Notes: a model not told the origin generated them from the letters alone. A stretch of DNA of 64,000 bases from an uncultured Methanosarcinaceae archaeon (GCA_963833425.1 CAWHXP010000010.1:32001-96000); one strand, 5' to 3'. Shown: positions 2,789 to 58,056, numbered from the stretch's first letter. Program-made: numbers and translations.

Positions 2789-2820
2789 ATGCATAGATTT
2801 ATATAGCAAAATCTCTGCAT
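2789..2820. repeat. Palindromic site, family A (8-nt spacer variant)
   Basis: ATGCATAGATTT ATATAGCA AAATCTCTGCAT. Confidence 0.75.
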
Positions 2821-3112
2821 TAGGATACCTGTTTTGTAAGCCTGATATACGATGCACGAATGTGCCTTCTCCTTATTATTACACCTACAAGGAAGGAAAC
2901 AGAAACAGATTACTCACTCACTACTAGAAAAACCAAGACCGGAAAAAAGAGCGATAAAGGGAAAAGCAAAATATAAGTGGATCTTTTAATTTTGTAAAGG
3001 AACTGTGAAAAATGAAAAAATATTATCCATTACAATTACCATCAACCACTAACAATAAACTATGAATGTTAATAAATCGTATATAGTAGCGTAGTTTCTT
3101 GAAAATTTACGG

Positions 3113-3370
3113 GTGGATAGACTGGGTAATATGAAAGGCGGTAAAACAAAATTTCAAAAAAAATTTACAGAAGATATGTTCCTGAATGCGCTATCAATTG
3201 ACAGTATTAAGTCCACTACAACTATTATGAGTTTAGTAGGATGCAGCAGGTCCACTGCCAAAATCATGCTTTATAAGCTTGTAAATGAAGGTAAAGTAAA
3301 TAAAATAGAAATCGAAGGCGACGGATACGGTTGGCAAAAAGTGAAAGGTGATTTAAATGAGTTTCATTGA
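3113..3370 (+). CDS. Small winged-HTH DNA-binding protein
   Basis: STTTIMSLVGCSRSTAKIMLYKLVNEGKVNKIEIEGDGYGW fits a wHTH pattern. Confidence 0.6.
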   Translation: MDRLGNMKGGKTKFQKKFTEDMFLNALSIDSIKSTTTIMSLVGCSRSTAKIMLYKLVNEGKVNKIEIEGDGYGWQKVKGDLNEFH

Positions 3371-3747
3371 TAGCTACAGAAAAGAAATCAGTCCAGAATT
3401 TGCATTGCAACTCATGCCTGAATTAAAAGAAGATTATCTCCAAGATCGTCCGTGTAAATGGGAAGAAGATACGATACAGCTTTGGAAAGTCGCAAGTGCA
3501 TTTATTGAAGATTGTGACCCATCAATCGAGAAACGTTCTTTTTTGTGTACTCCGGTATTTTTTGACAAAACAGGTAAACATAGATATTTCACATCACACG
3601 AAAAAAACAATGCAAGAGCAAATAGCTGAGTTTGATCAACAAGTTGGTGTTATTCATGAATTGGGTTGCACTATAACCGATAAGGATGGTAATACAGAAG
3701 CAAAAGTTTGGCTTCTGCAGATTGAGACCGAAATTAATCATGGGTAA
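3357..3747 (+). pseudogene. Hypothetical protein, frameshifted in an A7 run at 3601-3607
   Basis: The duplicate at 63816-64000 has A6 and reads in frame (TSHEKTMQEQIAEF), joining the ORFs at 3357 and 3496. Confidence 0.7.
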
Positions 3748-4618
3748 TTAGTATATATTTGACTGGAAAGTTGACTAATTGACAATCACTTCTAACATTC
3801 AATTTTTTTGTTTAATTACAGCCATAAGTCTTTCCACACTAGTAAATAAATTATTTAGTTTTTATTATTTTAAAGTAATAAAAATATATGAAAAATATCT
3901 CGAAGACACTTACCGGTCTATGGCTGCAAATTTATGGGGACTTGGTTCTGTCAAAAAAATGACTTAATCTGGGGCCACTGGAGAGACTTTTATAAGCAGT
4001 CCCATAAAATAAAGACTAGCCTAGTCAAAAAACGTCTTAAAACGTCTGAGAATGGCTCATTGTTGATTAATCTAGTCAAAACCCCGCCTTAGTGCATAAA
4101 AGAACTAAATAAACATTTAATACAAGATTCACTAATATTAACTATTGAAAATAAAAAACGGTGTTATCATGCCACGTCCTACAAAGCTCACTCATGAAGT
4201 ACAACAAAAAATTGGTGATAGTGTATCTCTTGGATTAACTTATGCTCTAGCTGCTAATTCAGCAGGTCTATCGTATCAGACTTTTAATCAATGGATGAAA
4301 CTGGGAAGAGATTCTACATCAGGAAAGTACTTTGAATTCTATCAACATATTGAAAAATGTAATGCTGATGCCGCAAAGGTTCTTCTTGAACGGTTAAATA
4401 ACGCAGCTACAGCTGGAAATTGCCAGGTTTCCATGTGGATTTTGGAGAGAAGGTTCCCTGCAGAATTTGGACGGCGGGTATATAGAAAAACGAATGTTGT
4501 TGCAGAAAACCTGAATCAAAATGTCGAGATAAGAGTCACGGACGCAGATATACTGAGAAAACAAATTTTAGCAAAATTTTATCGGATTGGAGAAGGTAAT
4601 GAGTCTTTAACTAATTAA
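3562..4618 (+). repeat. Inverted duplication of 62956..64000 (the other copy continues past the window end)
   Basis: Reverse complement of the window end matches from 3562 onward; paralogous ORFs 3779/63784 and 4169/63405. Confidence 0.95.
4169..4618 (+). CDS. HTH protein resembling a phage terminase small subunit
   Basis: MPRPTKLT.EVQQKI...GL..QTF..WM...YFEFY..IEK.....W.LERRFP.EFGRR pattern; ATG 4169 matches the paralog's start. Confidence 0.6.
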   Translation: MPRPTKLTHEVQQKIGDSVSLGLTYALAANSAGLSYQTFNQWMKLGRDSTSGKYFEFYQHIEKCNADAAKVLLERLNNAATAGNCQVSMWILERRFPAEFGRRVYRKTNVVAENLNQNVEIRVTDADILRKQILAKFYRIGEGNESLTN

Positions 4619-4701
4619 TATTTTTCATCCTAACTTGATCTATTTTTAATACAAAATATCCTTTTATTCATTTTTATTCGTTGGTATAATTGTAGTCGGA
4701 A

Positions 4702-5526: not shown

Positions 5527-6388
5527 GGTTCTGTTGCAAAAAATCATATTAATAAGTAATAATTTAGTTTTACAGCAAAGTACATAAAAACAGAATGTTC
5601 CTCAGAGAACATTCAGATTTAGATAGCTATTCCGAATAACTTGTTTATAAAATTAACTTCATCAAGAACACATCGATTTAGAGTAGCAATCTGTCCTTTT
5701 CTTATCATATGCATTATTTCAATTCCTTTTAAAGTCTTGATGGCTGTACAAAAAGACCGAAAGCCTAACATTGGGCGAATTATCCGCTTTATAAATCTAT
5801 GATCCTGTTCAACAACATTATTCAAATACTTGATTTGCTGAAGATTTATGTTTTTAGGTAATATTTTATCATTTTTGAGTTCATTTACCGCAGGTGGATA
5901 AGCTGGATTTTTATCAACAGCTATTACCTTTGGAATTTGATTATGGTTAGAACTCAAAGCTTTCTTAAGGAATCTCTTTGCAGCTTTTCTATCACGTTTT
6001 TCACTTAGCATAAAATCAACTGTGTTTCCAGTTGAATCAACTGCAAGATACAGATATTTCCATTCTCCTTTTACCTTGACGTAAGTTTCGTCCACTCTCC
6101 AAGAATCATTAGTTGGCCTTAAATACCTACGCACCTTCTTTTCGATCTCAGGAAAATATTGATGCACCCATTTCATTATAGTACTGTGATCAACTTGAAT
6201 TCCTCTTTCTATCATCATTTCCTTTAAATTTCTATAGCTCAATGGATATCTTAAGTACCATCTGACATTCAATAAGATAATCTCACCTACAAAGTGCTTC
6301 CATTTAAAGGAATTAGATAACATATTACTACTTTTGATTTCCTTTTTGTTTTATGATATCCTTAAAAAATATTTTTTGCAACGGAACC
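5527..6388 (-). mobile_element. IS6-family insertion sequence
   Basis: Terminal IRs GGTTCTGTTGCAAA / TTTGCAACGGAACC around a transposase; no flanking duplication seen. Confidence 0.95.
5619..6323 (-). CDS. IS6-family DDE transposase
   Basis: WRVDETYVKVKGEWKYLY..VD, VDKNPAY and YLNNVVEQDHRFIK motifs. Confidence 0.95.
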   Translation of the reverse strand: MLSNSFKWKHFVGEIILLNVRWYLRYPLSYRNLKEMMIERGIQVDHSTIMKWVHQYFPEIEKKVRRYLRPTNDSWRVDETYVKVKGEWKYLYLAVDSTGNTVDFMLSEKRDRKAAKRFLKKALSSNHNQIPKVIAVDKNPAYPPAVNELKNDKILPKNINLQQIKYLNNVVEQDHRFIKRIIRPMLGFRSFCTAIKTLKGIEIMHMIRKGQIATLNRCVLDEVNFINKLFGIAI

Positions 6389-7129: not shown

Positions 7130-7519
7130 CATAATCTATTTCCTTTTCACGAACATTTAGTTCTCTACCAACTAACTAGGATGAAATTACCATATTTGAA
7201 AATATTTTCCGTGGCAGTATACCTAAAGTTTGAAAAATCGTTCCTTTTGTTGCATTTCGAGTGCTTTTTGTTTTTTCACTAGTTCTTTTAATGTTGGTGG
7301 GACTATAAACCTACTCTCAGGTTTTTTATTATCCGCAATATACATGGGCTTTTTTTATATGTTTATAATTATTTGTATATGCCTATTTTATCTGCTTTTT
7401 GTCACTACAAAAAATAGGACTTATAGTTTTGCTGATATGGAAAGTTTCATACAATGCATGTGCATCTTAGGGTTAAGATAATTAAAATATTTGGACCAAA
7501 ATTGATAACAGGAAACAAG

Positions 7520-7658
7520 TAGGTTAATTAGTTCCAGATGTTACATGAGCTCCATATGTTCTAGGAGTCTCATAAGCTCCATGAGAAATAAATTCATATA
7601 TTTTTTATTTTTTGTGGAACTTCGGAAATGAAGAGATTTTTACGCAAAAACTATGCAT
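7520..7658. repeat. Conserved arm plus family A site (7628-7658)
   Basis: ATGAAGAGATTT TTACGCA AAAACTATGCAT preceded by a TTAATTAGTTCC...GAGCTCCAT arm shared with about 13260-13345 (inverted) and about 57920-57990. Confidence 0.7.
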
Positions 7659-7665
7659 CTATAAG

Positions 7666-8198
7666 TTAGAATTTGTTTTGTCCAGATCTTTTTATTAACC
7701 AATGTAAAGTCAAAATAGCTATTATCCCTATCCCGAATACTTCAGGAATAGAAGAGAGCGAGAAATTTAGTGTAAATGAATTTTCTACCAGTCTTATTAA
7801 ATATTCCATTCCAGTGGAATCCACATGATCTCTGGGGAAATTCAATCCGAAAAAAGGCCAGAATAAAGTTTTAGGAGTTGCCCACATTTGATCTTCCATA
7901 AGATGGAAGAAAGAGCCTGTGGTAAGAGAAATAATCCTGATATCTCCTTTTTTTTGTACAAGTATAAACCTATCAGGAAGAGAATAAGAGAGAAAAATAG
8001 AGTATGACCTATAATGCGTCCGTTTTCGAAGGTAGAAGCAAAGATAACTCTTCCTAGAGGTTTGTCTATCAGATCAGGTAAAAGGGCTCCAATAGCCAGG
8101 TACTTTGAATCTATAGTAGTTCTTAGTCGAGGTATAAAAATTCCAAGTCCGAAAAATACTCCCAACGTGACGCCAATATGTCCAAAAATAAGCATCAA
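7666..8198 (-). pseudogene. Membrane-bound metal-dependent hydrolase (YdjM-like), frameshifted
   Basis: FGHIG, GALLPDLIDKPLG, GHTLFF and FHLMEDQMW motifs split over two frames at the T8 run 7948-7955. Confidence 0.8.
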
Positions 8199-8258
8199 AA
8201 TTAAAAGGTACTTTAGTTATATATAAATATTGTTTGTTTATTACAGAACCTCACCAAA

Positions 8259-8289
8259 GTAGCAACTTTTTGTGATAAAACTTTGCCAT
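8259..8289. repeat. Degenerate family A site
   Basis: GTAGCAACTTTT TGTGATA AAACTTTGCCAT. Confidence 0.45.
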
Positions 8290-8335
8290 TTCCCAGGTTC
8301 TGGCAATTTTTTGCAATGGAACCGGCGTGATATTT

Positions 8336-8803
8336 TCAGGAGCTTTGTTGCCTCCAACAATTATCAACAAAATTCAATATATCTCGGGACATATCAAAAT
8401 AATCACGTAATGGGATAGTAGATACCAGCTCTAAGAACGAGGGTGCTTCGCTATCATCAGTTCTGACAACTAAAACTTTCTTATCTTTAGCCATTGCATA
8501 TCCAATGCTGTATATTACACTATCATCATTTTCCTTCATGAAAGCAATAAGAATATCACATATTTTTATAGTATCAAGAAGAGCAATTCGGTTATCATAT
8601 TCTATTCCCACATAGTTGGTGTCATATATTTGTACTTTAGGATATATCTGTAATTTATGTAATGCACTTATGTTATTGTCTTTTTTTTCAAAATCGTTGG
8701 CATCATATATTTGTATTCCATGTGATTCTAGTTCGTCTTTTAGTGACTGTATATAATCGCTTTCTTTCCCATTAAAAGCATAGGACAAAAAAACCGTCTT
8801 CAT
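8336..8803 (-). CDS. Nucleoside 2-deoxyribosyltransferase/TIR-like fold protein
   Basis: KTVFLSY start; CDILIAF...SVIYSIGYAMAKDKKVLVV resembles the NDT/TIR-like signature. Confidence 0.6.
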   Translation of the reverse strand: MKTVFLSYAFNGKESDYIQSLKDELESHGIQIYDANDFEKKDNNISALHKLQIYPKVQIYDTNYVGIEYDNRIALLDTIKICDILIAFMKENDDSVIYSIGYAMAKDKKVLVVRTDDSEAPSFLELVSTIPLRDYFDMSRDILNFVDNCWRQQSS

Positions 8804-9081
8804 TTTTAAAATCCATCCAAATAAATTTTCTTCTGTTAATATATAATAATATAGCTTTTATATAAACATATTGCGTTTTATTTTGACTGTTCTAAAATAA
8901 ACACATGATTTAGTCTCCTCTGCTTGCATATACCTGGAACCTTATTTATTAATGATCCGTGGGTTATTATCAAAAATAGAAGAATCAAAAAACACATAAG
9001 TAATGTGGAATACTGAGCGAATGCAGTCAATATTTCACAATATTTAAGAAGCAGTGGTCAATGCTAAAGTGCAACTTTTTA

Positions 9082-9112
9082 ATACACAGTTTTTGCTATA
9101 AAATCTCTGCAT
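9082..9112. repeat. Family A site
   Basis: ATACACAGTTTT TGCTATA AAATCTCTGCAT. Confidence 0.75.
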
Positions 9113-9401
9113 TAGTAAAAAAAGATACGATTCTATTTTTTTGTGGCAGTCCACTATTTTTGTATTAACTAGGAATCTAATCAATTAAAACTTGTATATT
9201 ACTCTCTTAGGTTGTGGAATCATTTATTTCTCGGAAAAATAGATAAAAATCAAGATATATTATCAAATTTCAAGCAGAAACATATCTCATTTAGTCGTGT
9301 CAATGGCAGCTAGTTAGTTTTATATCATTTGATTGATGCTATCTCCAATAATAATCTGAATGCCATTTCTTAGTTTGTAATAAATTAATAGAGAAATAAA
9401 T

Positions 9402-10127
9402 ATGCCTTCGAATGGAGAAAATAAAATGAAACTTTTACTGATTGCTGACATTCACGCAAATTATGAAGCTCTCCAAACTGTTCTTGAAGTCCCTCACGAT
9501 AGTGCTATCTGCCTTGGAGATATCGTGGACTACGGACCGGATCCTGACAAATGTATTGATCTCTTGCGAGAAAAAGCAATCCCAACAATAAGGGGAAACC
9601 ATGATAATGCTGTTGCTTTTGGGGTAGACTGTCAATGTGGATACAAGTATAAGCATCTATCAATTGCGACCAGGGAATACACATGGAAAATTCTTAACAA
9701 ATCTAGAATAGAATATTTGCAAAAACTCCCTCTCCTGATTGAAGAGCTAATCGATGGTAAAAGGTTTTATCTGACCCATGGAAGTCCGAGGTCTATGTTT
9801 GAATATATTAAACCAGACACTCCGGATGAAGTAATTAGGGATATGGTAGATGAAGCAATGGAGACTATGGATGCAGATTTCCTGGTAATTGGACATTCAC
9901 ATATTCCTATGGATAAAAAGCTAGGAAATCTTACAATTATAAACCCTGGTTCAGTAGGACAACCAAGAGACGGAAATCCCAGGGCAAGTTGCGTATTGTT
10001 TGATACAGAATACGACAAAGCCGAATTTCTTAGACTTGATTACGATATCGATGCTGTCTGCACAAAAATTAAAGACAGAATGCCTCATGCAGATGAACTG
10101 ATAGATATCCTCAGGCGTGGATATTAA
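9402..10127 (+). CDS. Calcineurin-like metallophosphoesterase
   Basis: ADIHAN, LGDIVDYG, RGNHD, THGS, GHSH and NPGSVGQPRDG motifs. Confidence 0.92.
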   Translation: MPSNGENKMKLLLIADIHANYEALQTVLEVPHDSAICLGDIVDYGPDPDKCIDLLREKAIPTIRGNHDNAVAFGVDCQCGYKYKHLSIATREYTWKILNKSRIEYLQKLPLLIEELIDGKRFYLTHGSPRSMFEYIKPDTPDEVIRDMVDEAMETMDADFLVIGHSHIPMDKKLGNLTIINPGSVGQPRDGNPRASCVLFDTEYDKAEFLRLDYDIDAVCTKIKDRMPHADELIDILRRGY

Positions 10128-10430
10128 TAGTAAATAAATAGGTGTTAACTTCTTTTAGTTCATCGCAATTCCATCGGCGCTCCGCAGCATTGTACATCGC
10201 CATTACAGCATACGTCTGTAGAGCAGCAATTCTCTTCGCATGCATTTGCTACTTCAAGTTCAAACCCGCAGACTTCACAAAAAAGACGCTGACCTTGCAT
10301 TAGCTCACTGCAATTCATTTTATATCACCTCAGAGTGTTTTATATAAAAATAGAGAATTTGTATTTAAATATTTTTCGAAACAATAATTCTTTGTTGCCT
10401 AAGTTATCTCATAATGATCCCTACGTACTT

Positions 10431-11042
10431 TCAGTCCAAACGTGCAATTCTTACAAGAAACTGAATCGGAACATTATAAATTGTATCTGCACCTTTTTTG
10501 TCGACCAGCGCAACTACAACTCTTGGTTTTGCATCCATTTCTCTAAGCTGCTCAATCACTTCTATAATAGTTGAACCGGTGGTAATCACATCATCTACAA
10601 TAACGCAGTTTTTACCGGCAACGGATCCAAAATTTCTGCTTATGGTCCCGCTATGACATAGCTTGACGATATCATGACCTTTACAATGATAAATCGCTAA
10701 ATCTGCACCCAGTTCATATGCCACCATGCTTGCCAGGGGAATACCATTGGCAGCAACACCAACAACAACGTCGACTTCAGTATTTATTTTTTCCAAGGTC
10801 TCAAGCACTATGTCGCAGAGCACAAGTGAGATGTTGTGGAGACGTTTAGCACTTTTTCCTATATTGCTCCAGTTTACGGAAATATCTTTCGGAGCTAGGG
10901 ATAATACTTCTTTTTTTGAACGGTTTAAAAGCCAAGTAACAGTTTCTCTTGAAACGTTGAATTCATCTGCGATCTGACCGGTAATAAGCCCGTTACTCTG
11001 CAGTTCTACAGCTTTCTGAATTAAATCTTCTATATCCTTCAT
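10431..11042 (-). CDS. Orotate phosphoribosyltransferase-like protein with N-terminal HTH (GfcR-type regulator)
   Basis: [19 protein letters not shown] plus the PRPP-binding loop [12 protein letters not shown]. Confidence 0.85.
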
Positions 11043-11575
11043 GCGTACATACCCACCTGAAAATTTTATCTGGCTTTATTTCCGGGGCTTCCAAATTAAT
11101 GACAGTATTATAATATCAAGCGTTATATCGCTTTCTTCTCCTAAGATTGAATTTTTTTCTTTAGCATTTGCTACTGCTGCTGTTACTGATAATAAAAAAC
11201 AGTTCTGGTGTAAAAAATAATATTTACGTAATTTGATACTATAATTCTTACCTTTGTTTACTAATTTTCCAGGAAATGAGATTGATTAACTTCCTAATTG
11301 TGAATGCCTATATTGATTTTGTAACAAAGCCAGATTTTTACATTACAATCCCAAATGAAGTTAATTCCCACAGAAAAAAGGTTAGAAGCTACCCCAGAGA
11401 AATGCAGTAGTTTTCTAAAAGTACTTTATTCTGCCTGTAATCGTCTAAAGTATACCGTTAACTGTAACGTTTAATTCGCTTGATTCTGAACCTCAAGTGC
11501 ATAGATCCTAAGTTTGGATAGCTTAAAGTATCAAGTTATTGTCTTCTACTTCAACAGAATAAATCTTATGAAGAG

Positions 11576-12835
11576 ATGAAAGATTTAATGAAGACCACAC
11601 AGATTGATTATGCCCGTGATGGGATACTTACTCATGAAATGAAACAAATCATGGAAAACGAAAATATTGATGAAGATATACTGCTTTCGAGAGTAGCTGA
11701 AGGAAGCCTAGTTATAATGACAAGGAAAAGTTACTCTCCCATAGCCATAGGTAAAGGCAGCAGCACTAAGGTAAATGTTAATCTTGGTACGTCTGCTGCA
11801 AAAATTGATCCTGACGCTGAGATAGAAAAGGTCAAGGTTGCAGAGAAGTATGGAGCAGATACAATCACTGATCTTTCCATGGGTGGAGATATTAAGTCAA
11901 TCCGTGCAAGTATATTAAAAAATTGTAATCTACCTATTACCACGGTGCCAATTTATCAGGCCATTGTGGAGTGTGGTATGAAAGATATCACTGAAGATGA
12001 TCTTTTATCGTATCTAAGGGCTCACGTAGATGAAGGTATGAGTTCTGTGGTGCTGCATTGTGTGGATAAGAAGACACTAGACAAATTGAAGGGAGTGGGT
12101 AGGATAATGGGTATGGTTTCTAAGGGTGGTTCTCTTACAAGTGTTTATATGCTAACAAATGGTTGTGAAAATCCATTCATAAAGAACTTTGAAGAGATTA
12201 TCGAGATACTTAGAAAAAAGGATGTTGTTCTTTCCCTAGGAAATACTATGCGAAGTGGATGCGTTCATGATTTTAGGGACAGTGCCCAGATGATGGAAAT
12301 TGAGACAAATGTCAGGCTTGCAAATAGAGTTAACGAAGAAGGTGTTCAGGTCATAATAGAAGGCATGGGTGGGCATATACAGGCAGCGGATATTCCTACT
12401 CAAGTTGAGCTGTATAAATCAAGATCAAGTTTCCCTCTCTTCGTTGCAGGTCCCCTGCCCACAGACATCGCCCTTGGATATGATCATATCGCAGGAGCAA
12501 TAGGAGCTAGTATTGCAAGCGGTGCAGGGGCAGATTATTTGTGTTATATTACACCTGCAGAGCATCTTTCTCTGCCGAGTTCTCAGCAAGTAAGAGAAGG
12601 TTTAATTGCTTTTAAGATAGCTGCCCATATAGGTGATTCTGTGAAGTATGGAGTTAATTGCAGGGATCTGCTGCTTGCAAAGAAACGTGCACAACTTGAC
12701 TGGAAAGGTCAAATAGATCTTGCACTTGATCCTGACAAACCTAAGGAGATGTGTCCCACAATTGGTCCCTGTTCTATGTGTGGTGAATATTGTGCCATAA
12801 AAATTATGGGAGATTATAGTCAACGTACTGGATAA
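11576..12835 (+). CDS. ThiC/Bza-family radical SAM enzyme (divergent)
   Basis: TKVNVNLGTS, GADTITDLSMGG, GYDHI, LCYITPAEHL and C-terminal CSMCGEYC. Confidence 0.88.
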   Translation: MKDLMKTTQIDYARDGILTHEMKQIMENENIDEDILLSRVAEGSLVIMTRKSYSPIAIGKGSSTKVNVNLGTSAAKIDPDAEIEKVKVAEKYGADTITDLSMGGDIKSIRASILKNCNLPITTVPIYQAIVECGMKDITEDDLLSYLRAHVDEGMSSVVLHCVDKKTLDKLKGVGRIMGMVSKGGSLTSVYMLTNGCENPFIKNFEEIIEILRKKDVVLSLGNTMRSGCVHDFRDSAQMMEIETNVRLANRVNEEGVQVIIEGMGGHIQAADIPTQVELYKSRSSFPLFVAGPLPTDIALGYDHIAGAIGASIASGAGADYLCYITPAEHLSLPSSQQVREGLIAFKIAAHIGDSVKYGVNCRDLLLAKKRAQLDWKGQIDLALDPDKPKEMCPTIGPCSMCGEYCAIKIMGDYSQRTG

Positions 12836-13187: not shown

Positions 13188-13345
13188 ATGCATAGTTTTT
13201 ATGTTAAAATCCATGGATTTCCTTGGTTCATCATAATAAAAAAATTGCTGATTTGCTATTCGTGGAGCTCATGGAACTCATAGAACGTATGGGGCTTATG
13301 GAACACTTAGAACTAGTTAATCTAGACCACCATAATAAATAAGAA
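13188..13345. repeat. Family A site (13188-13218) plus conserved arm, inverted relative to 7520-7658
   Basis: ATGCATAGTTTT TATGTTA AAATCCATGGAT, then GGAGCTCATGGAACTCATAGAACGTATGGGGCTTATGGAACACTTAGAACTAGTTAA. Confidence 0.7.
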
Positions 13346-13996: not shown

Positions 13997-14027
13997 ATCC
14001 AGAGATTTTGTGTAAAAATCTCTGCAT
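13997..14027. repeat. Family A site
   Basis: ATCCAGAGATTT TGTGTAA AAATCTCTGCAT. Confidence 0.75.
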
Positions 14028-14120
14028 CATATTTTAAGACAGAATATATTAAAAATATTTATAAAGTAAACCAACAATTACTGTCTTGTAGAACAAATAA
14101 AAAATCTCATACAGTATACT

Positions 14121-14155: not shown

Positions 14156-14194
14156 CCTTTCCTATTCATAATGAATTTTGATTTTCCATAATAA

Positions 14195-14959
14195 TTAAGC
14201 AGGTTCAGCTGCTCTATTGTATCCTTTAGCCAAGTTTGTATTTACGTGTACTACAGCTTCATTTGTATGCTTATATGCAAAGTCTTCGGTAATTATTGGC
14301 AGCTTATCAGCGTCTGTCTGAGAAGTGACGACCATACCTGCTGGAATGTACTTATTGTCAGAAATGGTTACGCCAATAGCTGCTGATTTTGGCTCAAGTA
14401 CACAATTGTTTCCTACTTTTGCCTTGAAAACAAGAGTTTGAAAGCCAATAAATGTATCATTACCTACATAAGCCGGACCATGCACCATGGACTGGTGAGC
14501 AAGAGTAACATTTTCTCCCACATAGACAGAGTATTTTTCACCATTGACATAAACAAGATGCTTTTCGACCGGTTTACCTTGTTCGTCAGTTGTCTCAAGG
14601 CCATGAATTACAACTCCATCCTGGACATTGCTATCCGTACCTATGAAAACAGGCATCCCCTCATCTCCACGGATGGATGCCATGGGAGAAACCATCACAT
14701 TAGCACCGATTATCACGTCTCCAATGACCGAAGCCTGGGGATGGATATAAGCTGTGGGATCAATTACAGGATAGATGGGCTTCGGATTCCATGGTGTTAC
14801 GGGATTGCTCATAATATTCGAAAAATTCAACGATGTTAATTGTTTATCCTTTGCTCCATTGTAATGTTGGGCACTTGTGCTCGCGACGGTGGCCACTAAA
14901 ATAGCCAAAATTAAGATTGTAAATATCTGCTTGTGAAACTTCATAACTTTGTGCCTCAT
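14195..14959 (-). CDS. cam: Secreted gamma-class carbonic anhydrase
   Basis: Signal peptide, hexapeptide repeats, SIRGDEGMP, NVQDGVVIHGLET, LAHQSMVHGPA and HTNEAVVHVN. Confidence 0.93.
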   Translation of the reverse strand: MRHKVMKFHKQIFTILILAILVATVASTSAQHYNGAKDKQLTSLNFSNIMSNPVTPWNPKPIYPVIDPTAYIHPQASVIGDVIIGANVMVSPMASIRGDEGMPVFIGTDSNVQDGVVIHGLETTDEQGKPVEKHLVYVNGEKYSVYVGENVTLAHQSMVHGPAYVGNDTFIGFQTLVFKAKVGNNCVLEPKSAAIGVTISDNKYIPAGMVVTSQTDADKLPIITEDFAYKHTNEAVVHVNTNLAKGYNRAAEPA

Positions 14960-15547: not shown

Positions 15548-15823
15548 TCACACGTTCCTAGCGTCTTCCAATCTATAGCCTTGATACATCAACTCTTCTA
15601 ATTTTTCTTTAGAAGGAGTGTCTAATTCGATCTCTCTTCCTGAAGCACCCTGTCCTTTTCGGAGAGCGACTTCTTTAATCATACCAATCATAATTAATTC
15701 AGCGATAGAGTTTGCTACCGTTGTCCTAGCCCTGCAGTTTTCTCCAATCACTTTACTTATTTGGGTGTACGTATCTTTAATTTCGGTTGCAGTATCAATG
15801 ACTGCGATTGTATTTTCTTCCAT
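15548..15823 (-). pseudogene. Isolated C-terminal winged-helix fragment, probably of Cdc6/Orc1
   Basis: YTQISKVIGENCRARTTVANSIAELIMIGMIKEVALRKGQGASGREIEL; begins 8 nt from the site at 15831. Confidence 0.55.
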
Positions 15824-15830
15824 CTCATAT

Positions 15831-15861
15831 ATGCACAGTTTTTGTGGTTGAACCTATGCTT
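15831..15861. repeat. Family A site
   Basis: ATGCACAGTTTT TGTGGTT GAACCTATGCTT. Confidence 0.65.
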
Positions 15862-15985: not shown

Positions 15986-16339
15986 TTACTTATTCTTGAT
16001 ATCTTCCAGTATCCGTTCAATTGGCTCCTTTATAGAAGGAACATCTTTCTTTATAGTGCTCCAAATAATGGGAAGATCTACCACAAAGTATCCGTGAACT
16101 ACTTTGTCACGGATTCCTGCCATAAACTTCCATGGAACTTCTGAATATTCATTTTTCAGGGTATCAGGAATATTCTTTGCTGCTTCTCCAATGATTTCCA
16201 GGGATTTCGTCACGGCATATATTGTTTTCTTATCGCCGGAAAATTCATTAAATTCAATTCCTTTGACGAATTCCTCTATATCATCAATAGAACCTAGAAT
16301 ATCCAGCAAAAATTGAGTGGAATCCCGACTGTAAGTCAT
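15986..16339 (-). CDS. HEPN (DUF86/HepT-like) RNase toxin
   Basis: LEIIGEAAKNIP...VPWKFMAGIRDKVVHGY, containing Rx4H. Confidence 0.92.
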   Translation of the reverse strand: MTYSRDSTQFLLDILGSIDDIEEFVKGIEFNEFSGDKKTIYAVTKSLEIIGEAAKNIPDTLKNEYSEVPWKFMAGIRDKVVHGYFVVDLPIIWSTIKKDVPSIKEPIERILEDIKNK

Positions 16340-16644
16340 AAAGATATAACCTCATTAAGGATATGTTTTTCAACATTCTGTTTGAGCCCAGTTCTTGTCA
16401 CTAGGTCTACTTTTACTCCCAGGAGATCACTAAGATAGTATTCAAGTTCAATGTATTTCAGGAGACCAGGTATTTTATCAAATTCTACCAGAATATCAAG
16501 ATCACTATCCTTAGTCTGCTCCCCACGAATATAAGACCCAAAAATTCCCAGATAGCTTACACTATATTTTTCTTTTAACTCAGGTAGATGTTTCCTTAAT
16601 ATCTTGATAAAATATTCTGAATCTTTTAACTCTTGAGAAAGCAT
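16336..16644 (-). CDS. MNT nucleotidyltransferase antitoxin
   Basis: GIFGSYIRGEQTKDSDLDILVEF and KVDLVT; likely start ATG 16644; overlaps HEPN start. Confidence 0.92.
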   Translation of the reverse strand: MLSQELKDSEYFIKILRKHLPELKEKYSVSYLGIFGSYIRGEQTKDSDLDILVEFDKIPGLLKYIELEYYLSDLLGVKVDLVTRTGLKQNVEKHILNEVISL

Positions 16645-16825
16645 TGTATATGGAGTCCTCCAAGTATCCCCACACAAATATGGTGAAAAAGTGAATTTGT
16701 TGCTAACGAGAATACGCATAATATCTATTTGTCATTTTCTCCAGTTTGTTTTTAACTAATGCGTTAGGAGCTTAGTAATGATTATTTTCTTTCCATATAA
16801 GTAGAACACTGTGCCTTAGAGCTAC

Positions 16826-16968
16826 AGTGTACCGGAAGTTCTGTAAAATATTATTTTCATTAACGCACAGGTTTTGCTATAAAACCTATGCATAAGTGTA
16901 ATCAAAAAATATTATTTAGTAATGAAAAAAAGGGTAAACCGTAGTTCTTACAGAACTTTCAGTACACT
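16826..16968. mobile_element. 143-bp MITE-like element with 21-bp IRs, containing a family A site (16863-16893)
   Basis: AGTGTACCGGAAGTTCTGTAA ... TTACAGAACTTTCAGTACACT; inner ACGCACAGGTTT TGCTATA AAACCTATGCAT. Confidence 0.6.
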
Positions 16969-16988: not shown

Positions 16989-17138
16989 GGTTCCGTTGCA
17001 AAAAATCTGAACATTTTACAAAATCGTTGAAAACATTCACAATAAGGAGATTTTAGTTATCAAAGTTGAGTTAAAATAGTATTTAATGGAAATAATAATA
17101 GCCTCAAAGTACAGAAAAATTATTTTTGCAACAGAACC
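16989..17138 (+). mobile_element. IS6-type MITE, 150 bp (copy A)
   Basis: IS6 IRs; 3 mismatches to 26435-26584; left flank TGATTGGG. Confidence 0.92.
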
Positions 17139-17398: not shown

Positions 17399-17429
17399 AT
17401 ACATCGTTTTTGATATAAAACCTATGCAT
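17399..17429. repeat. Family A site
   Basis: ATACATCGTTTT TGATATA AAACCTATGCAT. Confidence 0.65.
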
Positions 17430-28173: not shown

Positions 28174-28203
28174 ATACACAGTTTTTGTAATAAAACTTGG
28201 TAT
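28174..28203. repeat. Degenerate family A site
   Basis: ATACACAGTTTT TGTAATA AAACTTGGTAT, at the end of a GC-richer block. Confidence 0.5.
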
Positions 28204-35945: not shown

Positions 35946-35954
35946 GTTCTCACC

Positions 35955-49205: not shown

Positions 49206-50105
49206 GTGGGGAATAGGGGATTAAACGGCATGAGCACTGCACAGATAACTGAAAATATTAATTTCCCAGCCTTATTTCAAGCTTCAGAGAAGCAACTGCA
49301 GCTATATGATATAAGATCCAAGTTGTTACTTTTTTGTAGTAAAATTGCAGAGTTTGATTTGACCAAAATGACAGATTCAAATCTGGCTGGACTCTACAAG
49401 GTTTTTGCAGAATTGGATGCACTAGGAAATCTGGATGTTGACAACGAAATGTGTGAGTGTATTCTTCAAGACCCAGTGATTCAGTCCTTACTTCCTACAA
49501 TCCATTCCAGCTACAGCAGCTTTTTCAGCTTGCATGAGACACATCTTGCACAAAAAATACTTAACTATGAGAACCCCTGGAAAATGTTGCAATCTTTCCC
49601 CCTATATCCGAAATACGAAAATCTGATCAGTGTACATTTCCATAATTCCCCAAAAATTGAAGTGCTGGCCTTTGTAGGTTGTGGTCCCATTCCTGTTACT
49701 CTGTTACTTTTCAGTAAATTATATGGCATCCTCTGCATCGGCATAGATCAAGATCCCGGAGCAGCAGCACTGGCCAAAAGGTGTGTAAAGCACTTTGGCC
49801 TCGAAAAAAAAATCAGTATTATTTGGGGGGATGAAACATCACTTTCAAAAATTGAATGGAATTCTGTACTCATAGCAGGGCTTGCTGAACCAAAACTACG
49901 AATTTTCCAGAACCTCCATAAAATAATTAAAAAAAAATCCGAGTCAAAAAAACCTATTTCTGTATGCTATCGTAACTATACCGGCATGAGGCAGTTGCTC
50001 TACTGGCCCATCCAGCCGAAGTGGACCCGAGGTTTTCGGAAAATAAATGAAATTTATCCCACAGGTGGAGTAAACAACACTCTAGTCTTCCTGGAGTGTG
50101 AATAA
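49206..50105 (+). CDS. Nicotianamine synthase-like protein 1
   Basis: LHETHLA, FPLYPKYENL, AFVGCGPIPVT, AGLAEPK, YR...GMRQLLY and VNNTLVF. Confidence 0.82.
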   Translation: MGNRGLNGMSTAQITENINFPALFQASEKQLQLYDIRSKLLLFCSKIAEFDLTKMTDSNLAGLYKVFAELDALGNLDVDNEMCECILQDPVIQSLLPTIHSSYSSFFSLHETHLAQKILNYENPWKMLQSFPLYPKYENLISVHFHNSPKIEVLAFVGCGPIPVTLLLFSKLYGILCIGIDQDPGAAALAKRCVKHFGLEKKISIIWGDETSLSKIEWNSVLIAGLAEPKLRIFQNLHKIIKKKSESKKPISVCYRNYTGMRQLLYWPIQPKWTRGFRKINEIYPTGGVNNTLVFLECE

Positions 50106-50919
50106 TATCTTACAAGTCGAAGCTTCGTACTTAATTTCAGAACTTCGACAGATTCATGCTCTGATAAAGGATATTGGAGAAGAAGAAGTTTTGGAGAGCT
50201 CCTCGGTAGAACTGCAGGTAGCTTTTAAGAGGTTGGATGAACTAGCTGCTCTTGAACTGGATGAAGAATCCACAGAGATGATCCTCAAAAGGCTGGAGCT
50301 TGAACCTTTGCTTATTTCAATTTCTAACTTTCGGTTCTCATATAATCTGAAGGTTGAAATCGAAAAAGCAAAAAGCATCCTTGAAAGCCAGGACCCGTGG
50401 AAAACCCTCAAGAATTTTACGTTTTATACAAACTATCTGCAGCTCGCTAGGACTGAATACATAGGTTCCAAACTAAAACCAGAAGACTGCGTTGTGTTTC
50501 TTGGCAGTGGTCCTCTACCACTGAGTTTGATAATGCTCTGTCACGAGCATGGTGTTCAAGGAATTGGAATTGAGCAAGATGGACAAAGAGCAAGTCTCTC
50601 ACGGGAAATAATTTCCAAACTCAAGCTTTCAGAAAAAATTAGAATAATTGAAGGAAATCACATCTGTCTTCCTCTCAAGGATAGATGTGAACTTTACATG
50701 ATCGCTGCCCAAGCCGAACCCAAAAAAGAGATATTCGAGCACCTAGCAAAAGTTCTGCCCAAAGGAAGTAAAATCTCCTATCGTCTATATGAAAAAGGCC
50801 TTAGAAGAATACTGGATGGCGGTATTCTCTTCGAACTACCGGCAGAATTTGAAGAATATCTTAGAGTTCAGCCAGAACCTCCGGTTAATAATACAGTTGT
50901 GTTTTTAGAAAAAAATTAG
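50098..50919 (+). CDS. Nicotianamine synthase-like protein 2
   Basis: VEIEKA, FTFYTNYLQLARTE, VFLGSGPLPLS, AAQAEPK, YR...GLRRIL and PPVNNTVVF; overlaps NAS1 stop. Confidence 0.85.
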   Translation: MNNILQVEASYLISELRQIHALIKDIGEEEVLESSSVELQVAFKRLDELAALELDEESTEMILKRLELEPLLISISNFRFSYNLKVEIEKAKSILESQDPWKTLKNFTFYTNYLQLARTEYIGSKLKPEDCVVFLGSGPLPLSLIMLCHEHGVQGIGIEQDGQRASLSREIISKLKLSEKIRIIEGNHICLPLKDRCELYMIAAQAEPKKEIFEHLAKVLPKGSKISYRLYEKGLRRILDGGILFELPAEFEEYLRVQPEPPVNNTVVFLEKN

Positions 50920-51075: not shown

Positions 51076-51915
51076 TTAATTCTCATGCTCATGAATGTGC
51101 TCCTCATCAAGGGCAGGGTGCAGATGCTCATGCACAAGCATGCCGTGAATGTGCATGTGCTCATGGATCAAATTTGCGGAAAGAAGAAGCTCCCGGTTAT
51201 CAAGTATCTTTTCTGCTCTATCATCCACCACAATCCTATGGTCTTCGCCCATGACTATGACTCTTTTGCTAATCTGCTCGACTGTTTCAAGGTCATGAGT
51301 TGCAGTAATTATTGTCTTTCCCGCAGTCCCAAGATCTTGTAATAGCTCTATAAGCCATAGCTGGGTTCTCGGGTCCAATCCTGCAGTAGGTTCATCCAAC
51401 AAAAGGACATCGGGGTTATTAGCCAGAACGGAAGCTATGCAGACTTTTTTCTTCTCCCCCCCGCTTAGAGTGTGAGGAGATCGATCTTTAAGCTTAGTGA
51501 TTTCTATCATCTCCATTACTTCCAAAACTCTGGTCCTGACATCCTCAGGATTCATGTCGAGCTGAAGGGGTCCAAATGCAATCTCATCAAAGACTGTGGG
51601 CGAGAAGAGCTGCACATCAGAGTTCTGAAAGACAAATCCTATTTTTTTTCGGAAATAGGACCTGAATTCATTATCTTTAATAGTATCGAAAACCTCTTCT
51701 ACTATCTTATTGTCAAAGGCATAGAATTCTCCCAAAGTAGGATATATAAGCCCGTCTAACATAGCCAACAAAGTAGATTTGCCACAACCATTTGCGCCAA
51801 TTATAGAAATCCGCTCACCAGGCTCCACTTTGAAGTTAATATCATTTAAGGCATTTATTTTTCCTACATATGAATATGAAACATTCCTTAAGTCAAAGAT
51901 CGTTTCCATATCCAT
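51076..51915 (-). CDS. nikO: ECF ATPase (NikO/CbiO) with His-rich C-terminus
   Basis: GANGCGKST, LSGGEKKK and LLLDEPT; tail HEHMHIHGMLVHEHLH...HIHEHEN. Confidence 0.9.
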   Translation of the reverse strand: MDMETIFDLRNVSYSYVGKINALNDINFKVEPGERISIIGANGCGKSTLLAMLDGLIYPTLGEFYAFDNKIVEEVFDTIKDNEFRSYFRKKIGFVFQNSDVQLFSPTVFDEIAFGPLQLDMNPEDVRTRVLEVMEMIEITKLKDRSPHTLSGGEKKKVCIASVLANNPDVLLLDEPTAGLDPRTQLWLIELLQDLGTAGKTIITATHDLETVEQISKRVIVMGEDHRIVVDDRAEKILDNRELLLSANLIHEHMHIHGMLVHEHLHPALDEEHIHEHEN

Positions 51916-51916
51916 G

Positions 51917-52853
51917 TCATCTGATAATGTTCTGAGAAATCAACACCAAGGCTATGCTCAGAGATATTACTATTGCCCCTGAAACATAATCTCGGATACG
52001 CATTTTAAATTCTTGCATTGTTTTAACATCCCCATTGTAGCTCCTGGATTTCATGGCTTTATATACCTCTTCACTCATTCCCAGAGATCTTATCAGCACG
52101 TATCCTATTCGTCCCCCTACCCACTTTTGCTCCTCAAACATGCTTCTATATTTTATTGTCCTAGCTTTCTTTGCAATGTACATATCGCGAACCAGATTAG
52201 TTAGAACGAAAATATACCTGTAGGTCATACCCAACGTGAAAACATAGATTTTTGGAACGCCAATACTACGAAAGGACTTAAAGAGCATTTGCTGAGGTGT
52301 AGTCAGAAAAAGTAGAACTGTGGCAGAAACACATGTTGCAACACGCATTGTAAATATTACAGCGGCATTGACGCCCTGTCTGGTGATATAGATATACTCT
52401 CCGGCAGTGAAAATGGCCCCAAGTGAGAGTCAGGACCAAGGTATGCTAACCTAATTAGAGAATCGCCTGGTAAGAAGATATTGAAGATCATGGGTATAGC
52501 GATGATGCCTGAAAAGATGGGGATGAAAAGCCAGACCCGCTTGATGAAAAACAGGGCATCTATTTTACTGAGATACGAAAACAACAGCGTAAGCATATAA
52601 ACAAAGATCAGTAATTTCAGATCTCTGATCAAACTCGTTGCGAATATCAAAATCAGGATAGAAACTAGCTTAATCCTGGAATCCAAGCTTTGAAGCAGGC
52701 CTTTTCGCCTTGAATATACTTCTGAAAAAAAGTGGTCTCCATGAACTCGACAACTTCCTCAATTGTTCTACCTATGAAGCTCTTTTTACCATGATATACA
52801 GCAGAGCACCTACAAGGTTCTACCTTCACTTCTTTCATCCAGTTCGGGATCAT
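51917..52853 (-). pseudogene. nikQ: ECF T component NikQ/CbiQ with two frameshifts
   Basis: Three ORFs join to give SRRKGLLQSLDSRIKL...MTYRYIF...AMKSRSY; breaks at the A7 run 52725-52731 and the TA repeat near 52390. Confidence 0.88.
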
Positions 52854-55494: not shown

Positions 55495-55917
55495 TCACAC
55501 ATTTTCGTTTGATGGTACAGTTGTGAGTTTTGAGAATTTTACCCCTTTTAGGGCCATTATAGATTCGTCAACCTCTTTAATTCTTTCACCATCTCCATCC
55601 AAAACAATTACTTCAAAACAGTTTTCATGATCGATGTGTATATGCACGGATGACTTTATTAGGTGAGAGTATTGATGCTGGATATCTGCAAGGGCGTTTG
55701 AGAGACCTCTTTTATTGTGGTCATAAACAACAGCAATGGTTCCGATACGATGGCCTTTAATGCCACCCATCCACTCGTAATAGGAAATATAACTCCTGAT
55801 GGCATCTCTTATGCCTTCTGAACGGGAAGAATAGCCTCTTTTTTTGGTAATCTCATCAAATTTACTCAAAAGGTTGTCAGGAAGAGAAACCCCTATCCTC
55901 ATAAGTTCTGTTTCCAT
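55495..55917 (-). CDS. nikR: Nickel-responsive regulator
   Basis: [30 protein letters not shown] and [13 protein letters not shown]. Confidence 0.96.
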
Positions 55918-56554
55918 CGTATCACCAAATTATTTGGATTTATCCATTTAATAATACTTTATTATAACATAAGTATTACTATATATGTTTTATCCACTTA
56001 ATAACCACATAAAATAATTAGTTATGATTCCATACTAGAAATCAGTACTTCATAAGCCCCGAAAGATATTTTTAATCTGTTAAAGTTTTGAAAACTTCAA
56101 TATTTAGCAGTTATTTATAGTTCAAAACGTCTTCAATACCATCTCTCAGTTTTTTTGTTTCGCCTTTTGGATGGAGAGCGTAGAACGTCTTGATGCATGA
56201 AAAACCTAAAAATTTTGGTATTTTACAGATGATATGCCAGAAAAGACTTTGGAAATATTGAAATTTATCGATGGCCATGTTTTTTTAACTAGTTATCCGA
56301 AATATTTACAATCCTAAGCCAACAAAGGTTTGTTAATATGCATTCACTAAAGCAGGATTTATTCAAAATTATATAATCATAAAAAGAAGTCGATTTAGTC
56401 CTAAAAAGAAAGAAATTAAGGGTTTTAAATTTATTTTTACGACCTATTGCCGGTAGACCTTTTTGGGGTAGTTTTGCATAAGGATCGCAAAATAATTTAG
56501 ACCATTATTTATATTCCATATATTTTTTCCAGTTGTTTATATCATTTTCTGGAA

Positions 56555-56866
56555 CTAGGGTTCGACAATTGGATTAAAGTGTCCTGACTCTGTACCAGCA
56601 GGTACCTCACCCAAGTAGGGGAAACTGGTTGCAGGAGAAGGACAAGATACAACCCAGGATCCTGCGCCATTATAAACATACTGACAAGGACCAGACCAGT
56701 TCCATCCCCAGCCAAAGCCGTCACCCCAGCTTCCTCCAAAGCCCCAAGCTCCACCACGGTACCAACCTGCACGTGCACTAACTGACATACCTGTCAATGA
56801 TACTAAAAACAGAGCTGCTAAATAAATAGACAGTACCTTTTTCATTTTACTGGATGATTGTTTCAA
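56555..56866 (-). CDS. Secreted Gly/Trp-rich peptide with a Cys pair
   Basis: MKKVLSIYLAALFLVSLTGMSVSA signal, then RAGWYRGGAWGFGGSWGDGFGWGWNWSGPCQYVYNGAGSWVVSCP. Confidence 0.8.
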   Translation of the reverse strand: MKQSSSKMKKVLSIYLAALFLVSLTGMSVSARAGWYRGGAWGFGGSWGDGFGWGWNWSGPCQYVYNGAGSWVVSCPSPATSFPYLGEVPAGTESGHFNPIVEP

Positions 56867-57237
56867 TATTTTATTACGCTCCTTTTATATTGTTTAACTT
56901 AACACTGAATACTGATAACATTTATAGATATATAAATATATATGTATAATTACTAATTTATTGTTTATAAGCCCTGGAAGATAATGATATTCCGTAAGGT
57001 AACAAATATTGCCCTATTTCTTTTTTGAGTCGTCAGTAGTACTTATTATTTAATCCTTCGTTAAAATTGATTCAAAGCATTTCTTATAATCAATCTTTTA
57101 CGCCTATTTATTTTGCTAATTTATTAGATTTGGTAATAAAATTTGGATATTATCAAAATATTTAGAATATAACCAAAAATTTATCTATAATAGATATAGC
57201 ATATAATTCTTAATATTTATTAGAATAAATATAAAAG

Positions 57238-57564
57238 GTGAAACAAATGTTAAAACAAACATCTAGTAGAATGAAAAAGGTACTGTCTATTTCTTTAGCA
57301 GTTCTTTTTGTAATATCGGTGACATCAGTGGCAGCTAGTGCACACTATGGTGGCTGGGGCGGCTATGGCTGGGGTCCCGGATGGGGCTATGGTACTGGTT
57401 GTAGGTGGGTGGGTGGTGATAATTGGCTTTGCCCTGGATTCAATTTTACATCGGGAATGCCATACACTATTCAAAATTCAACACCTGCAGCTCCAGCTCC
57501 TGCGGCTCCGGATCTAGGTCCAGATGCAGGACTAGCTATATTTCCAAAAAAAGCATCCACATAG
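57238..57564 (+). CDS. Secreted Gly/Trp/Tyr-rich peptide with a Cys pair and Pro/Ala tail
   Basis: Same leader family, then HYGGWGGYGWGPGWGYGTGCRWVGGDNWLCP. Confidence 0.8.
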   Translation: MKQMLKQTSSRMKKVLSISLAVLFVISVTSVAASAHYGGWGGYGWGPGWGYGTGCRWVGGDNWLCPGFNFTSGMPYTIQNSTPAAPAPAAPDLGPDAGLAIFPKKAST

Positions 57565-57919
57565 ATAATTTCTTCAAGTATGTGATTAAAACAATGTAAA
57601 TGATGTTACCCTTAGTCATTGTATAGGATTTTGATAAGCAAGGCATAAAACATTTTAAAATTGACAATAGTTTGAGCTTATTACATTTTTAATCATTCCT
57701 GGATAACATCACAAGCTTATCAACAAATAACGTAATTTGTGGAGTTCAAACATTGTCATAAAATATTAATATATTAAAATTTTGCATTTGATTTAGATAG
57801 GTTTCTTTGATGGTTTAGCTGAAGTTCTGTTATATCTGATGAGCTCTTTATCATTTTCTTTCACTTCAAAAAAGCAGGATGCTGAAGTAGTAGTTATACT
57901 AACTAAATTTTTGTTATTT

Positions 57920-58056
57920 TATTCTTATTTATGCTTGTGATTTAGTTTAATTAGTTCCAAGTGTTCCAAGAGCTCCATGTGTAATGGATCTTCAATGTTT
58001 TCTTATTCTGGAAGGAGCTTAGAAAATTCAGAGATTTTCGCACCAAAACTATGCAT
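57920..58056. repeat. Conserved arm plus family A site (58026-58056)
   Basis: TTAATTAGTTCCAAGTGTTCCAAGAGCTCCATG arm; ATTCAGAGATTT TCGCACC AAAACTATGCAT. Confidence 0.7.

Follow-up and report, generated by a model that had tools for sequence, protein, structure and literature searches.

The 64,000-nt stretch of DNA analysed here (G000:C10:32001-96000, referred to as the window) belongs to an uncultured Methanosarcinaceae archaeon, G000, with an assembly of 4.07 Mb in 21 contigs and a genome completeness of 80%. It carries dispersed copies of a 31-bp palindromic site lying between small gene modules, which we discuss as candidate recombination sites of a cassette system. The original prediction, made from the window sequence alone, had listed about 11 copies. 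Scoring the sites as inverted pairs with a 13-nt half-site weight matrix trained on G000's own copies and applying a threshold of 18 bits, we recover ten of these eleven (19.5-36.4 bits) and detect no further site in the window at or above 18 bits beyond those ten. These are found at 2789..2820 (35.1 bits; 32 bp, the centre being one base longer), 7628..7658 (31 bp, 32.6 bits), 9082..9112 (36.4 bits), 13188..13218 (29.9 bits), 13997..14027 (32.8 bits), 15831..15861 (25.4 bits, with a weak right arm), 16863..16893 (36.0 bits), 17399..17429 (34.2 bits), 28174..28203 (a decayed site of 19.5 bits in total, in which the left arm is intact with 17.9 bits and the right arm almost gone) and 58026..58056 (29.7 bits). 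The eleventh copy at 8259..8289 scores below 8 bits and is at best a relic because only the inner CTTTTT-GTGAT-AAAAC is retained.

The genes lying between these sites are of diverse nature. A YdjM-like membrane protein (7842..8195, minus strand) is the cargo of a module spanning 7665-8289, which recurs in G056, G032, G042 and G058 and whose homology in other genomes stops at 8261-8289, i.e. within the possible relic site. The adjacent module 8305-9112 encodes a nucleoside 2-deoxyribosyltransferase (NDT)/TIR-like protein (8336..8803, minus strand), is present in three genome copies with 97-98% identity and has site 9082 as its right end. It is followed by a block at 9402..12835 composed of genes for a phosphoesterase (9402-10127, plus strand), a GfcR-like phosphoribosyltransferase (10431-11042, minus strand) and ThiC (11576-12835, plus strand), with 96% identity to G059:C7:92000-95809. 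Site 13188 forms the end of this block common to G059, and the GC-richer block that the original prediction saw ending at a site is confirmed, the segment 9113-13187 having 36.9% G+C compared to 29.9% in the next segment. Site 13997 coincides with the beginning, at 13990-13997, of the homology to G063, G046 and G059 of a cam-like module, its cargo being a hexapeptide-repeat (gamma-carbonic-anhydrase-like) protein (14195..14959, minus strand). A C-terminal fragment of Cdc6 (15548..15823, minus strand) is a gene remnant between sites and starts 7 nt from site 15831 (8 nt according to the earlier reading), and a toxin-antitoxin pair of a HEPN (HepT-like) protein and an MNT nucleotidyltransferase (15986..16719, minus strand) follows, with site 16863 located 144 nt upstream. 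HicB/HicA genes are also among the window genes lying between sites. As noted before, no tyrosine recombinase gene is present in the window, the only transposases being encoded by IS6-family (DDE_Tnp_IS240) genes at 5619-6323 and 62138-62842.

Genome-wide, the weight-matrix scan yields 246 raw and 234 de-duplicated sites of at least 18 bits in G000 compared to 0-1 in the reversed genome, and the reversed window contains no match even at 10 bits or more. Allowing up to one mismatch, the half-site is matched 18 times where 4.3 matches are expected. The consensus ATGCAYAGnTTTT-N5-AAAAnCTRTGCAT has a 13-5-13 layout of 31 bp with a T run on one strand within each arm, conservation being confined to these 31 bp and the flanks lacking any conserved sequence. 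This layout is equivalent to the nearly fixed 12-7-12 geometry described initially and the better notation. The centre is 5 nt long in 162 of the 234 sites, and the centres are asymmetric and related, as had been stated, ATAGC/GCTAT being the most frequent. With 13-bp inverted arms around an asymmetric 5-bp centre the sites have the layout of a tyrosine-recombinase core site, a class with arms of 11-13 bp and centres of 5-8 bp. As 206 of 248 half-sites of at least 16 bits fall inside full sites, the unit is the palindrome and not a lone terminal repeat. The exact degenerate pattern given with the original prediction was unsuitable as a search tool, matching none but the 2789 copy because most copies differ by one or two letters, and was replaced by the weight matrix.

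The sites are strongly clustered, 109 of 217 neighbour distances being 3 kb or less compared to 34 expected. In total, 145 sites form 25 clusters spanning 239 kb of G000, and the largest cluster (C10:2503-49399, 26 sites) extends into the window, where it takes in the left part. Of the 75 pairs of neighbouring sites separated by 3 kb or less, 61 have the same centre orientation (81%, p = 4e-8). We compared 107 open reading frames (ORFs) of at least 70 aa from 110 inter-site intervals (median 1.4 kb) to Pfam: about half of them have no family at E <= 1e-5, and the others include methyltransferases, BD-FAE esterases, pentapeptide and TPR proteins, HEPN/MNT proteins, HicB, three NDT-like genes and CorA, as well as several gene fragments.

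A subset of sites is accompanied by a conserved leader of about 47 nt (TTTCCTAAGTTCCA...) after the palindrome, followed by 9-nt tandem repeats (ATGGAGCTY) which read as an ORF of 17-35 aa of the MELMGLIEHLEL... type at about 30 loci genome-wide. This leader/repeat ORF is found within 130 nt of 32 of the 234 sites. In the window it occurs beside site 7628 (left flank, minus strand), beside site 13188, where the ORF at 13265..13342 (plus strand) belongs to this family of about 30 and begins about 47 nt past the site, and beside site 58026 (after the site, minus strand). The repeat ORF could encode a small protein or represent an array of accessory binding sites.

Homology breaks within the palindromic sites

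We used self-comparison of G000, considering paralogous alignments of at least 150 bp, to locate joints within the genome. For 87 of the 234 sites we find a paralogous alignment terminating no farther than 4 nt from the outer edge of the site, compared to 4-14 at positions shifted outward by 20-200 nt, and such alignments run through only about 19 sites with 40 nt on either side. The position of the break was resolved with 24 site pairs sharing at least 90% identity in one flank and less than 50% in the other. In these pairs the variable positions of the arm next to the shared flank match with frequencies of 0.88-0.92 (positions 3 and 6) and 0.67 (position 9) and the centre with 0.67 at position 14 and 0.88-0.92 over positions 15-18, compared to 0.46-0.54 for the variable positions of the far arm, which is near the baseline of 0.30-0.43. 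In some pairs with a shared flank the centre differs too.

Individual modules display the same behaviour. The three copies of the NDT module are identical through the left arm and the centre of site 9082 (to ...GCTATAAAAT) and unrelated thereafter. The 96%-identical block common to G059 stops in site 13188, with the centre, the far arm and the onward flank differing. The cassette G000:C10:30594-31523 also lies between two sites in G059:C13 with 92% identity and unrelated flanks, and the cassette C10:12463-13415 ends exactly past the left arm of site 13403 and is site-bounded in G063. The same module is thus found between sites in different contexts, as exemplified by the three NDT copies and by the two C10 cassettes in G059 or G063. 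Neither G063 nor G059 contains a collinear counterpart of the 32-kb island to the left of the window, and the modules of this island match scattered loci, even though both genomes elsewhere share 94-100% identity with G000. For the island on C8, the comparison with G063 reveals indels that are not bounded by sites.

Public sequencing runs, available as contigs and covering at most 21% of the words of window positions 7501-17500, are informative for the presence but not for the absence of an arrangement. In these, metagenome contigs of relatives diverge from the window at 13200-13203 and at 9077-9082, and contigs from an RNA library diverge at 16858 and 16893. The breaks inside the sites that a recombination system should leave, proposed as a check, are therefore found within G000, towards related genomes and in metagenome contigs.

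A second motif recurring at joints, TTTTGCAAYRGAACC, turned out to be an inverted end belonging to IS6-family elements and to the 150-bp elements derived from them. These elements and miniature derivatives of 120-150 bp have inverted ends of the form GGTTCCGTTGCAAAAA, which are matched 277 times in the genome compared to once in the control, and G059 contains at least 40 copies of an IS6-family element. One such 150-bp miniature element with IS6-type inverted ends is located at 16989..17138, outside the palindrome system, and causes several joints at 16987-16989. Some of the joints are accounted for by IS6 activity, whereas the joints at palindromes are not.

Linkage to a small tyrosine recombinase gene

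The G000 genome contains 15 Phage_integrase matches. Low-copy complete genomes show a recurrent arrangement of a 31-bp site and a 29-bp site, the latter with a 3-nt centre, 82-84 nt apart, and in G007 this double site directly precedes a short integrase gene. The G000 orthologue, G000:C6:91902-92510, is our candidate cognate gene; it encodes a protein of 202 aa and lies on a contig other than that of the window. We studied the linkage in 20 orthologue loci (11 at 71-82% identity, five from the high-copy clade and four at 61-67%) plus G000. In nine of the 11 loci at 71-82% identity the start codon is preceded by the 31-bp site at -121 to -152 and by the 29-bp site at -36 to -68; of the remaining two, one has the distal site only and one, on a short contig, a half-site only. 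The 29-bp site has been retained at about -50 in G000 and in each of the five loci from the high-copy clade, the distal copy there being decayed. The double site and the recombinase gene have the same direction, and one to three cassettes adjoin the double site in G035, G007 and G005.

At the four loci with 61-67% identity the layout of the palindromes is unchanged but the outer arms differ. Their variant, ATCAGGTTTT-N5-AAAACCTGAT, occurs exactly once, beside the gene, in three of five genomes searched, in two of them on small second contigs. Three complete genomes have the small recombinase gene and the site on a small second contig, perhaps a plasmid (G033:C2 and G070:C2, of 42-58 kb, and G034:C2). 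Across the genus, the recombinase gene and double site are found on chromosomes as well as on small second replicons. The presence of both on small second contigs would agree with an enzyme that first served to resolve or integrate replicons of this kind. A double site of the same kind (82-84 nt apart) also precedes an MNT-HEPN pair beside a SIR2-like cassette (G005:C4:413642-416246, L007) and ORFs without Pfam family in G004 (L010) and G015 (L006).

Site and gene also co-occur. Among 59 Methanosarcina genomes 44 have both, four the gene only, four the site only and seven neither (Fisher p = 2.4e-4, a value that ignores kinship); two of the four gene-only genomes have gene fragments and the site-only genomes carry 1-4 sites each. 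Counted at up to three mismatches, the copy number is 0-29 in most Methanosarcina genomes and rises in a high-copy clade to 121 in G000, 101 in G059, 98 in G063, 83 in G060, 54 in G046 and 50 in G045. A scan of 12 genomes of other families of the order did not find the motif. Within Methanosarcinaceae, the recombinase family occurs in seven of 16 genera and in 48 of 150 genomes sampled. The co-occurrence of an integrase clade, suggested as a check together with XerA as a possible identity, is hence observed for a dedicated 202-aa tyrosine recombinase which is not XerA.

This assignment follows from the profile matches. The 202-aa protein scores 37 bits against PF00589 Phage_integrase (cut-off 27.1), and in NCBIfam at E <= 0.01 it matches only recomb_XerA_Arch, with 19.4 bits compared to a cut-off of 220. 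It is not the host Xer; scanning G000, which is 80% complete, with the XerA model gave no match at the cut-off, the best reaching 122 bits. R56, K86, K143, R146, H169 and Y178 are invariant in 36 homologues with 61-95% identity, and by their position in the tyrosine-recombinase motifs we assign them to the catalytic Arg, Lys, (His/Lys)-x-x-Arg, His and Tyr nucleophile. A sequence search of solved structures found no close relative. The predicted structure (pLDDT 84.6) resembles most closely archaeal XerA, followed by phage and Tn1549 integrases, XerH and the integron integrase, the latter (2a3v) being the fold match of rank 10 with a TM score of 0.56. According to this model the enzyme is predicted to be essentially a catalytic domain alone.

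Other candidates were set aside. The integrase families of 378 aa (six copies; on C1, C6, C18, C21 and C8) and 403-405 aa (four copies; C10:102506-103723, C5, C20 and C9) show homology over the gene and about 60 nt only, and a single copy, the 405-aa integrase at C10:102506-103723, is located near sites. This copy lies 218 nt downstream of a double site, the position taken by the small recombinase gene in other genomes. For an ORF of 660 aa in the window (17876-19858), neither a family nor an informative structure match was obtained, and it is not consistently linked to the sites.

A proposed cassette system and rival explanations

The sites are real and non-random, homology breaks within them, cassettes recur in different contexts, the site is linked to a recombinase gene with which its arms covary, and the catalytic residues of the enzyme are conserved. 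On the basis of these sequence comparisons we consider it probable that a dedicated minimal tyrosine recombinase of Methanosarcina, of about 200 residues, uses the 31-bp palindromes as its core recombination sites and that the palindromes delimit exchangeable cassettes. The pdif- or integron-like cassette shuffling put forward in the original prediction gains support from the breaks in the sites, the co-occurring tyrosine recombinase and the lack of a general fixed distance to gene starts. Of the two types we favour an integron-like system over one of the Xer/pdif type.

From the sequence data we infer binding, strand exchange, circular intermediates and present-day activity, which could be combined in a model according to which each 13-bp arm is occupied by one recombinase monomer, two such sites come together and strand exchange takes place at the asymmetric 5-bp centre. 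A recombinant site would then consist of an arm, usually together with the centre, of one parent joined to the other arm of a second parent; exchange at the centre would make recombinant sites hybrid, as is observed. Since neighbouring sites are mostly co-oriented, the intervening DNA could be released as a circle with a single site and become reinserted at any of the other sites. Exchangeable cassettes of about 0.7-2.7 kb would thereby be delimited by the sites, the putative cargo including, besides toxin-antitoxin pairs, genes for methyltransferases, esterases and repeat proteins, gene fragments and many genes that belong to no family. Ancestrally, the recombinase gene may have had its own double site (31 bp and 29 bp) around a likely promoter, the double site probably serving autoregulation and possibly acting as a docking site, and in one clade the site would have multiplied to the 50-121 strict matches found today (234 by the matrix in G000). 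That the centres are unequal points to a possibly one-sided exchange like that of integrons. On one side the centre goes with the shared flank in 16 of 21 pairs, compared to six of 16 on the other, which hints at a fixed crossover side next to the centre and is only suggestive because the pairs are mutually related.

Several observations weigh against this interpretation. The claim that pairs of sites bracket the modules holds for the right end of the NDT module, the right end of the ThiC block and the start of the cam-like module, and fails for some other ends: the left end of the NDT module (8305) is an IS6-type repeat and that of the ThiC block a ribosome-binding site near 9413, neither being a palindrome. 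With many module ends not located at palindromes, other processes must also build the mosaic. Empty single-site alleles, expected from the earlier reading, were not found in a within-genome search for single sites whose flanks match the outer flanks of a site-cassette-site arrangement, and neither excised circles nor inversions were seen. The centres differ between many sites, which blocks complete exchange in classical tyrosine recombinases. The enzyme lacks the usual N-terminal core-binding domain (202 aa compared to about 280 for XerA), the arrays of G000 are not adjacent to the recombinase gene, and the 31-bp distal copy upstream of this gene is decayed in the clade with high copy number. 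Finally, a TATA-like stretch upstream of the recombinase gene is enclosed by the double site, and about 30 sites lie at a fixed 47-50 nt before the conserved small ORF, so that a regulatory role is also possible, and SroF of phage phi3T, a repressor with tyrosine-recombinase fold, is among the fold matches.

The latter observations are those on which an operator model would be built. According to this model the recombinase-fold protein is mainly a repressor of its own gene and of an accessory regulon, and the sites were duplicated along with promoter-gene units. The double site around the TATA-like stretch is a classic autoregulatory layout, it also precedes other genes (MNT-HEPN in G005, the 405-aa integrase at G000:C10 and others), and the sites before the small ORF as well as the integrase-fold repressor SroF fit the same explanation. 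A pure repressor, however, needs none of the catalytic Arg, Lys, Arg, His and Tyr residues that are invariant in the 36 homologues, and operator function does not predict breaks inside sites, at the centre or the far arm, nor the co-orientation of neighbouring sites. The fixed distance to gene starts of a coherent regulon, by which operators were to be recognised, is not a general feature. As judged by a crude codon-score gene caller (53% coding), which makes these position statistics approximate, 224 of the 234 sites fall between genes, all four arrangements being represented (123 tandem, i.e. 68 and 55, 57 convergent and 43 divergent), and the distances between site and gene are widely spread with medians of 400-470 nt, the exceptions being the repeat-ORF subfamily and the recombinase gene itself. 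We regard the operator model as unlikely, though as the most probable of the three alternatives.

A second alternative views the palindrome as a selfish short repeat of the REP or miniature-transposon type that inserts itself between genes, perhaps by means of an IS200/IS605-type Y1 transposase or of the small recombinase, module borders being secondary. It would account for hundreds of copies, almost all intergenic and without conserved flanks, for the lineage-specific expansion and for the 24 Y1 transposase family matches in the genome, most of which, however, contain stop codons. Self-insertion should produce paralogous loci with and without the site. Among 278 paralogous alignments within the genome spanning a site with at least 40 nt on each side, only one lacks it, with an identity of no more than 59%, so there is no sign of site-only insertion. 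The genus-wide tie of the site to a tyrosine recombinase gene, the covariation of the arms, the strong clustering and the co-orientation likewise speak against a selfish repeat, an explanation to which we give little credit.

The least probable of the three, a mosaic built by IS6 elements and homologous or illegitimate recombination in which the palindromes are bidirectional transcription stops or insulators overlapping with breakpoints merely by being intergenic, can draw on the abundant IS6-type ends, some of them at module ends (NDT left end, 16989), on the T run in each arm and on the tendency of genes upstream of an oriented site to end facing it (94 versus 47, with no bias downstream, 73 versus 68), yet it is contradicted by the also-intergenic control positions 20-200 nt away with their few alignment ends and by the resolution of the break to inside the 31 bp, and it leaves the recombinase link and the arm covariation unexplained.

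Returning to the palindromes as recombination sites, we put forward, with about even confidence, a wider proposal: Methanosarcina may have independently evolved an integron-like gene capture based on a recombinase consisting of the catalytic domain only and on 31-bp double-stranded palindromic sites. Cassettes exchanged and reshuffled between close relatives would make up about 6% of the genome (the 25 clusters of 239 kb) in one clade associated with soil/peat, and the sites may in addition control the recombinase gene and some cassette promoters.

Known systems and further features of the window

Bacterial cassette capture by site-specific recombination is well studied, the main examples being integrons and pdif modules. 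The Methanosarcina system resembles integrons in having a tyrosine recombinase with a site beside its own gene, many short cassettes each bounded by palindromes, co-oriented sites in the arrays (61/75), a cargo rich in toxin-antitoxin pairs and genes of unknown function, arrays that are wholly different between close relatives and, as a hint, a one-sided crossover. In contrast to integrons, the 202-aa enzyme matches no integron-integrase model, as judged by profile scan and fold rank, and the sites are sequence-conserved, near-perfect palindromes of 31 bp, whereas integron attC sites are imperfect hairpins of 57-141 bp conserved in structure. Moreover, the arrays of G000 form clusters on many contigs instead of a single array beside the gene, and the recombinase gene is co-directional with its double site.

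With the pdif modules of Acinetobacter plasmids, which depend on XerC/XerD, it shares short inverted-arm sites bounding modules that are found in varied contexts and often encode toxin-antitoxin pairs. pdif recombination employs the host's chromosome-dimer resolvases and 28-bp sites of 11-6-11 layout alternating in orientation. Here, the recombinase is dedicated, small and distinct from XerA, the layout is 13-5-13 and neighbouring sites are co-oriented (81%). The system thus functions like an integron or a pdif module yet fails defining features of both.

Two inverted arms around a short asymmetric centre are also common to archaeal XerA/dif, Cre/loxP and plasmid multimer resolution, XerA proteins being the closest folds, and the variant clade with its single cognate palindrome beside the gene on second replicons (G070:C2, G034:C2) is similar to these simple systems. 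They differ from the system described here by the core-binding domain, which is missing in the 202-aa enzyme, by the doubled site around a promoter-like stretch and by the hundreds of cassette-delimiting sites in one clade. FimB/FimE, of only about 200 residues, and the shufflon recombinase Rci are tyrosine recombinases that likewise use short inverted-repeat sites; these invert or shuffle DNA within one locus, whereas the sites here are mostly direct and genome-wide.

Our literature search, which included the arm strings and covered sources other than supplements and subscription journals, found no description of the site or system, the papers matched by the arm strings being unrelated. In the portion of a review on archaeal tyrosine recombinases considered here, Methanosarcinales are mentioned only for pT26-2-type integrases (PMC8371274), and cassette capture in archaea is known only in the form of classical integrons of uncultured lineages, Methanosarcina being unmentioned in the portion of that study considered here (PMC9668308). 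If our interpretation is true, cultivable and genetically tractable methanogens own a separate cassette system with a very small recombinase and a simple 31-bp site, which would explain the exchange of accessory, defence and toxin-antitoxin genes in Methanosarcina. The mechanism would be open to direct binding, excision and integration assays, and the minimal enzyme-site pair could become a genetic tool for methanogens, with the arm covariation between enzyme clades offering natural specificity variants.

Further features of the window concern genes apart from the cassettes. The ORF rejected above as a system component belongs to a multi-copy family of 660-689 aa with copies at 17876-19858 and 40101-42170 (both minus strand) and at G000:C13:76124-78234, three to four copies being present per genome of the high-copy clade and the homology being limited to the gene and about 80 nt. 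Comparison with Pfam and NCBIfam revealed no family and only a weak match to a carbohydrate-binding protein. Gene remnants are frequent in the window (15548-15823, 31515-32857, 51917-52348 and 59115-59730), Cdc6/Orc1 being represented by two of them, CbiQ being truncated and an ABC ATPase being divided between two ORFs, and the host lineage seems to be rich in decayed genes. Cobalt/nickel uptake of the ECF type is represented in the window by three paralogous clusters (CbiM/N/Q/O), and the window also encodes NikR and, in neighbouring genes, two nicotianamine-synthase-like proteins (30121-31190, 35622-36674, 49230-50919, 51076-52348, 55495-55917 and 58359-61782), and because of these clusters the right half of the window, almost without palindromic sites, looks like a metal-uptake region.

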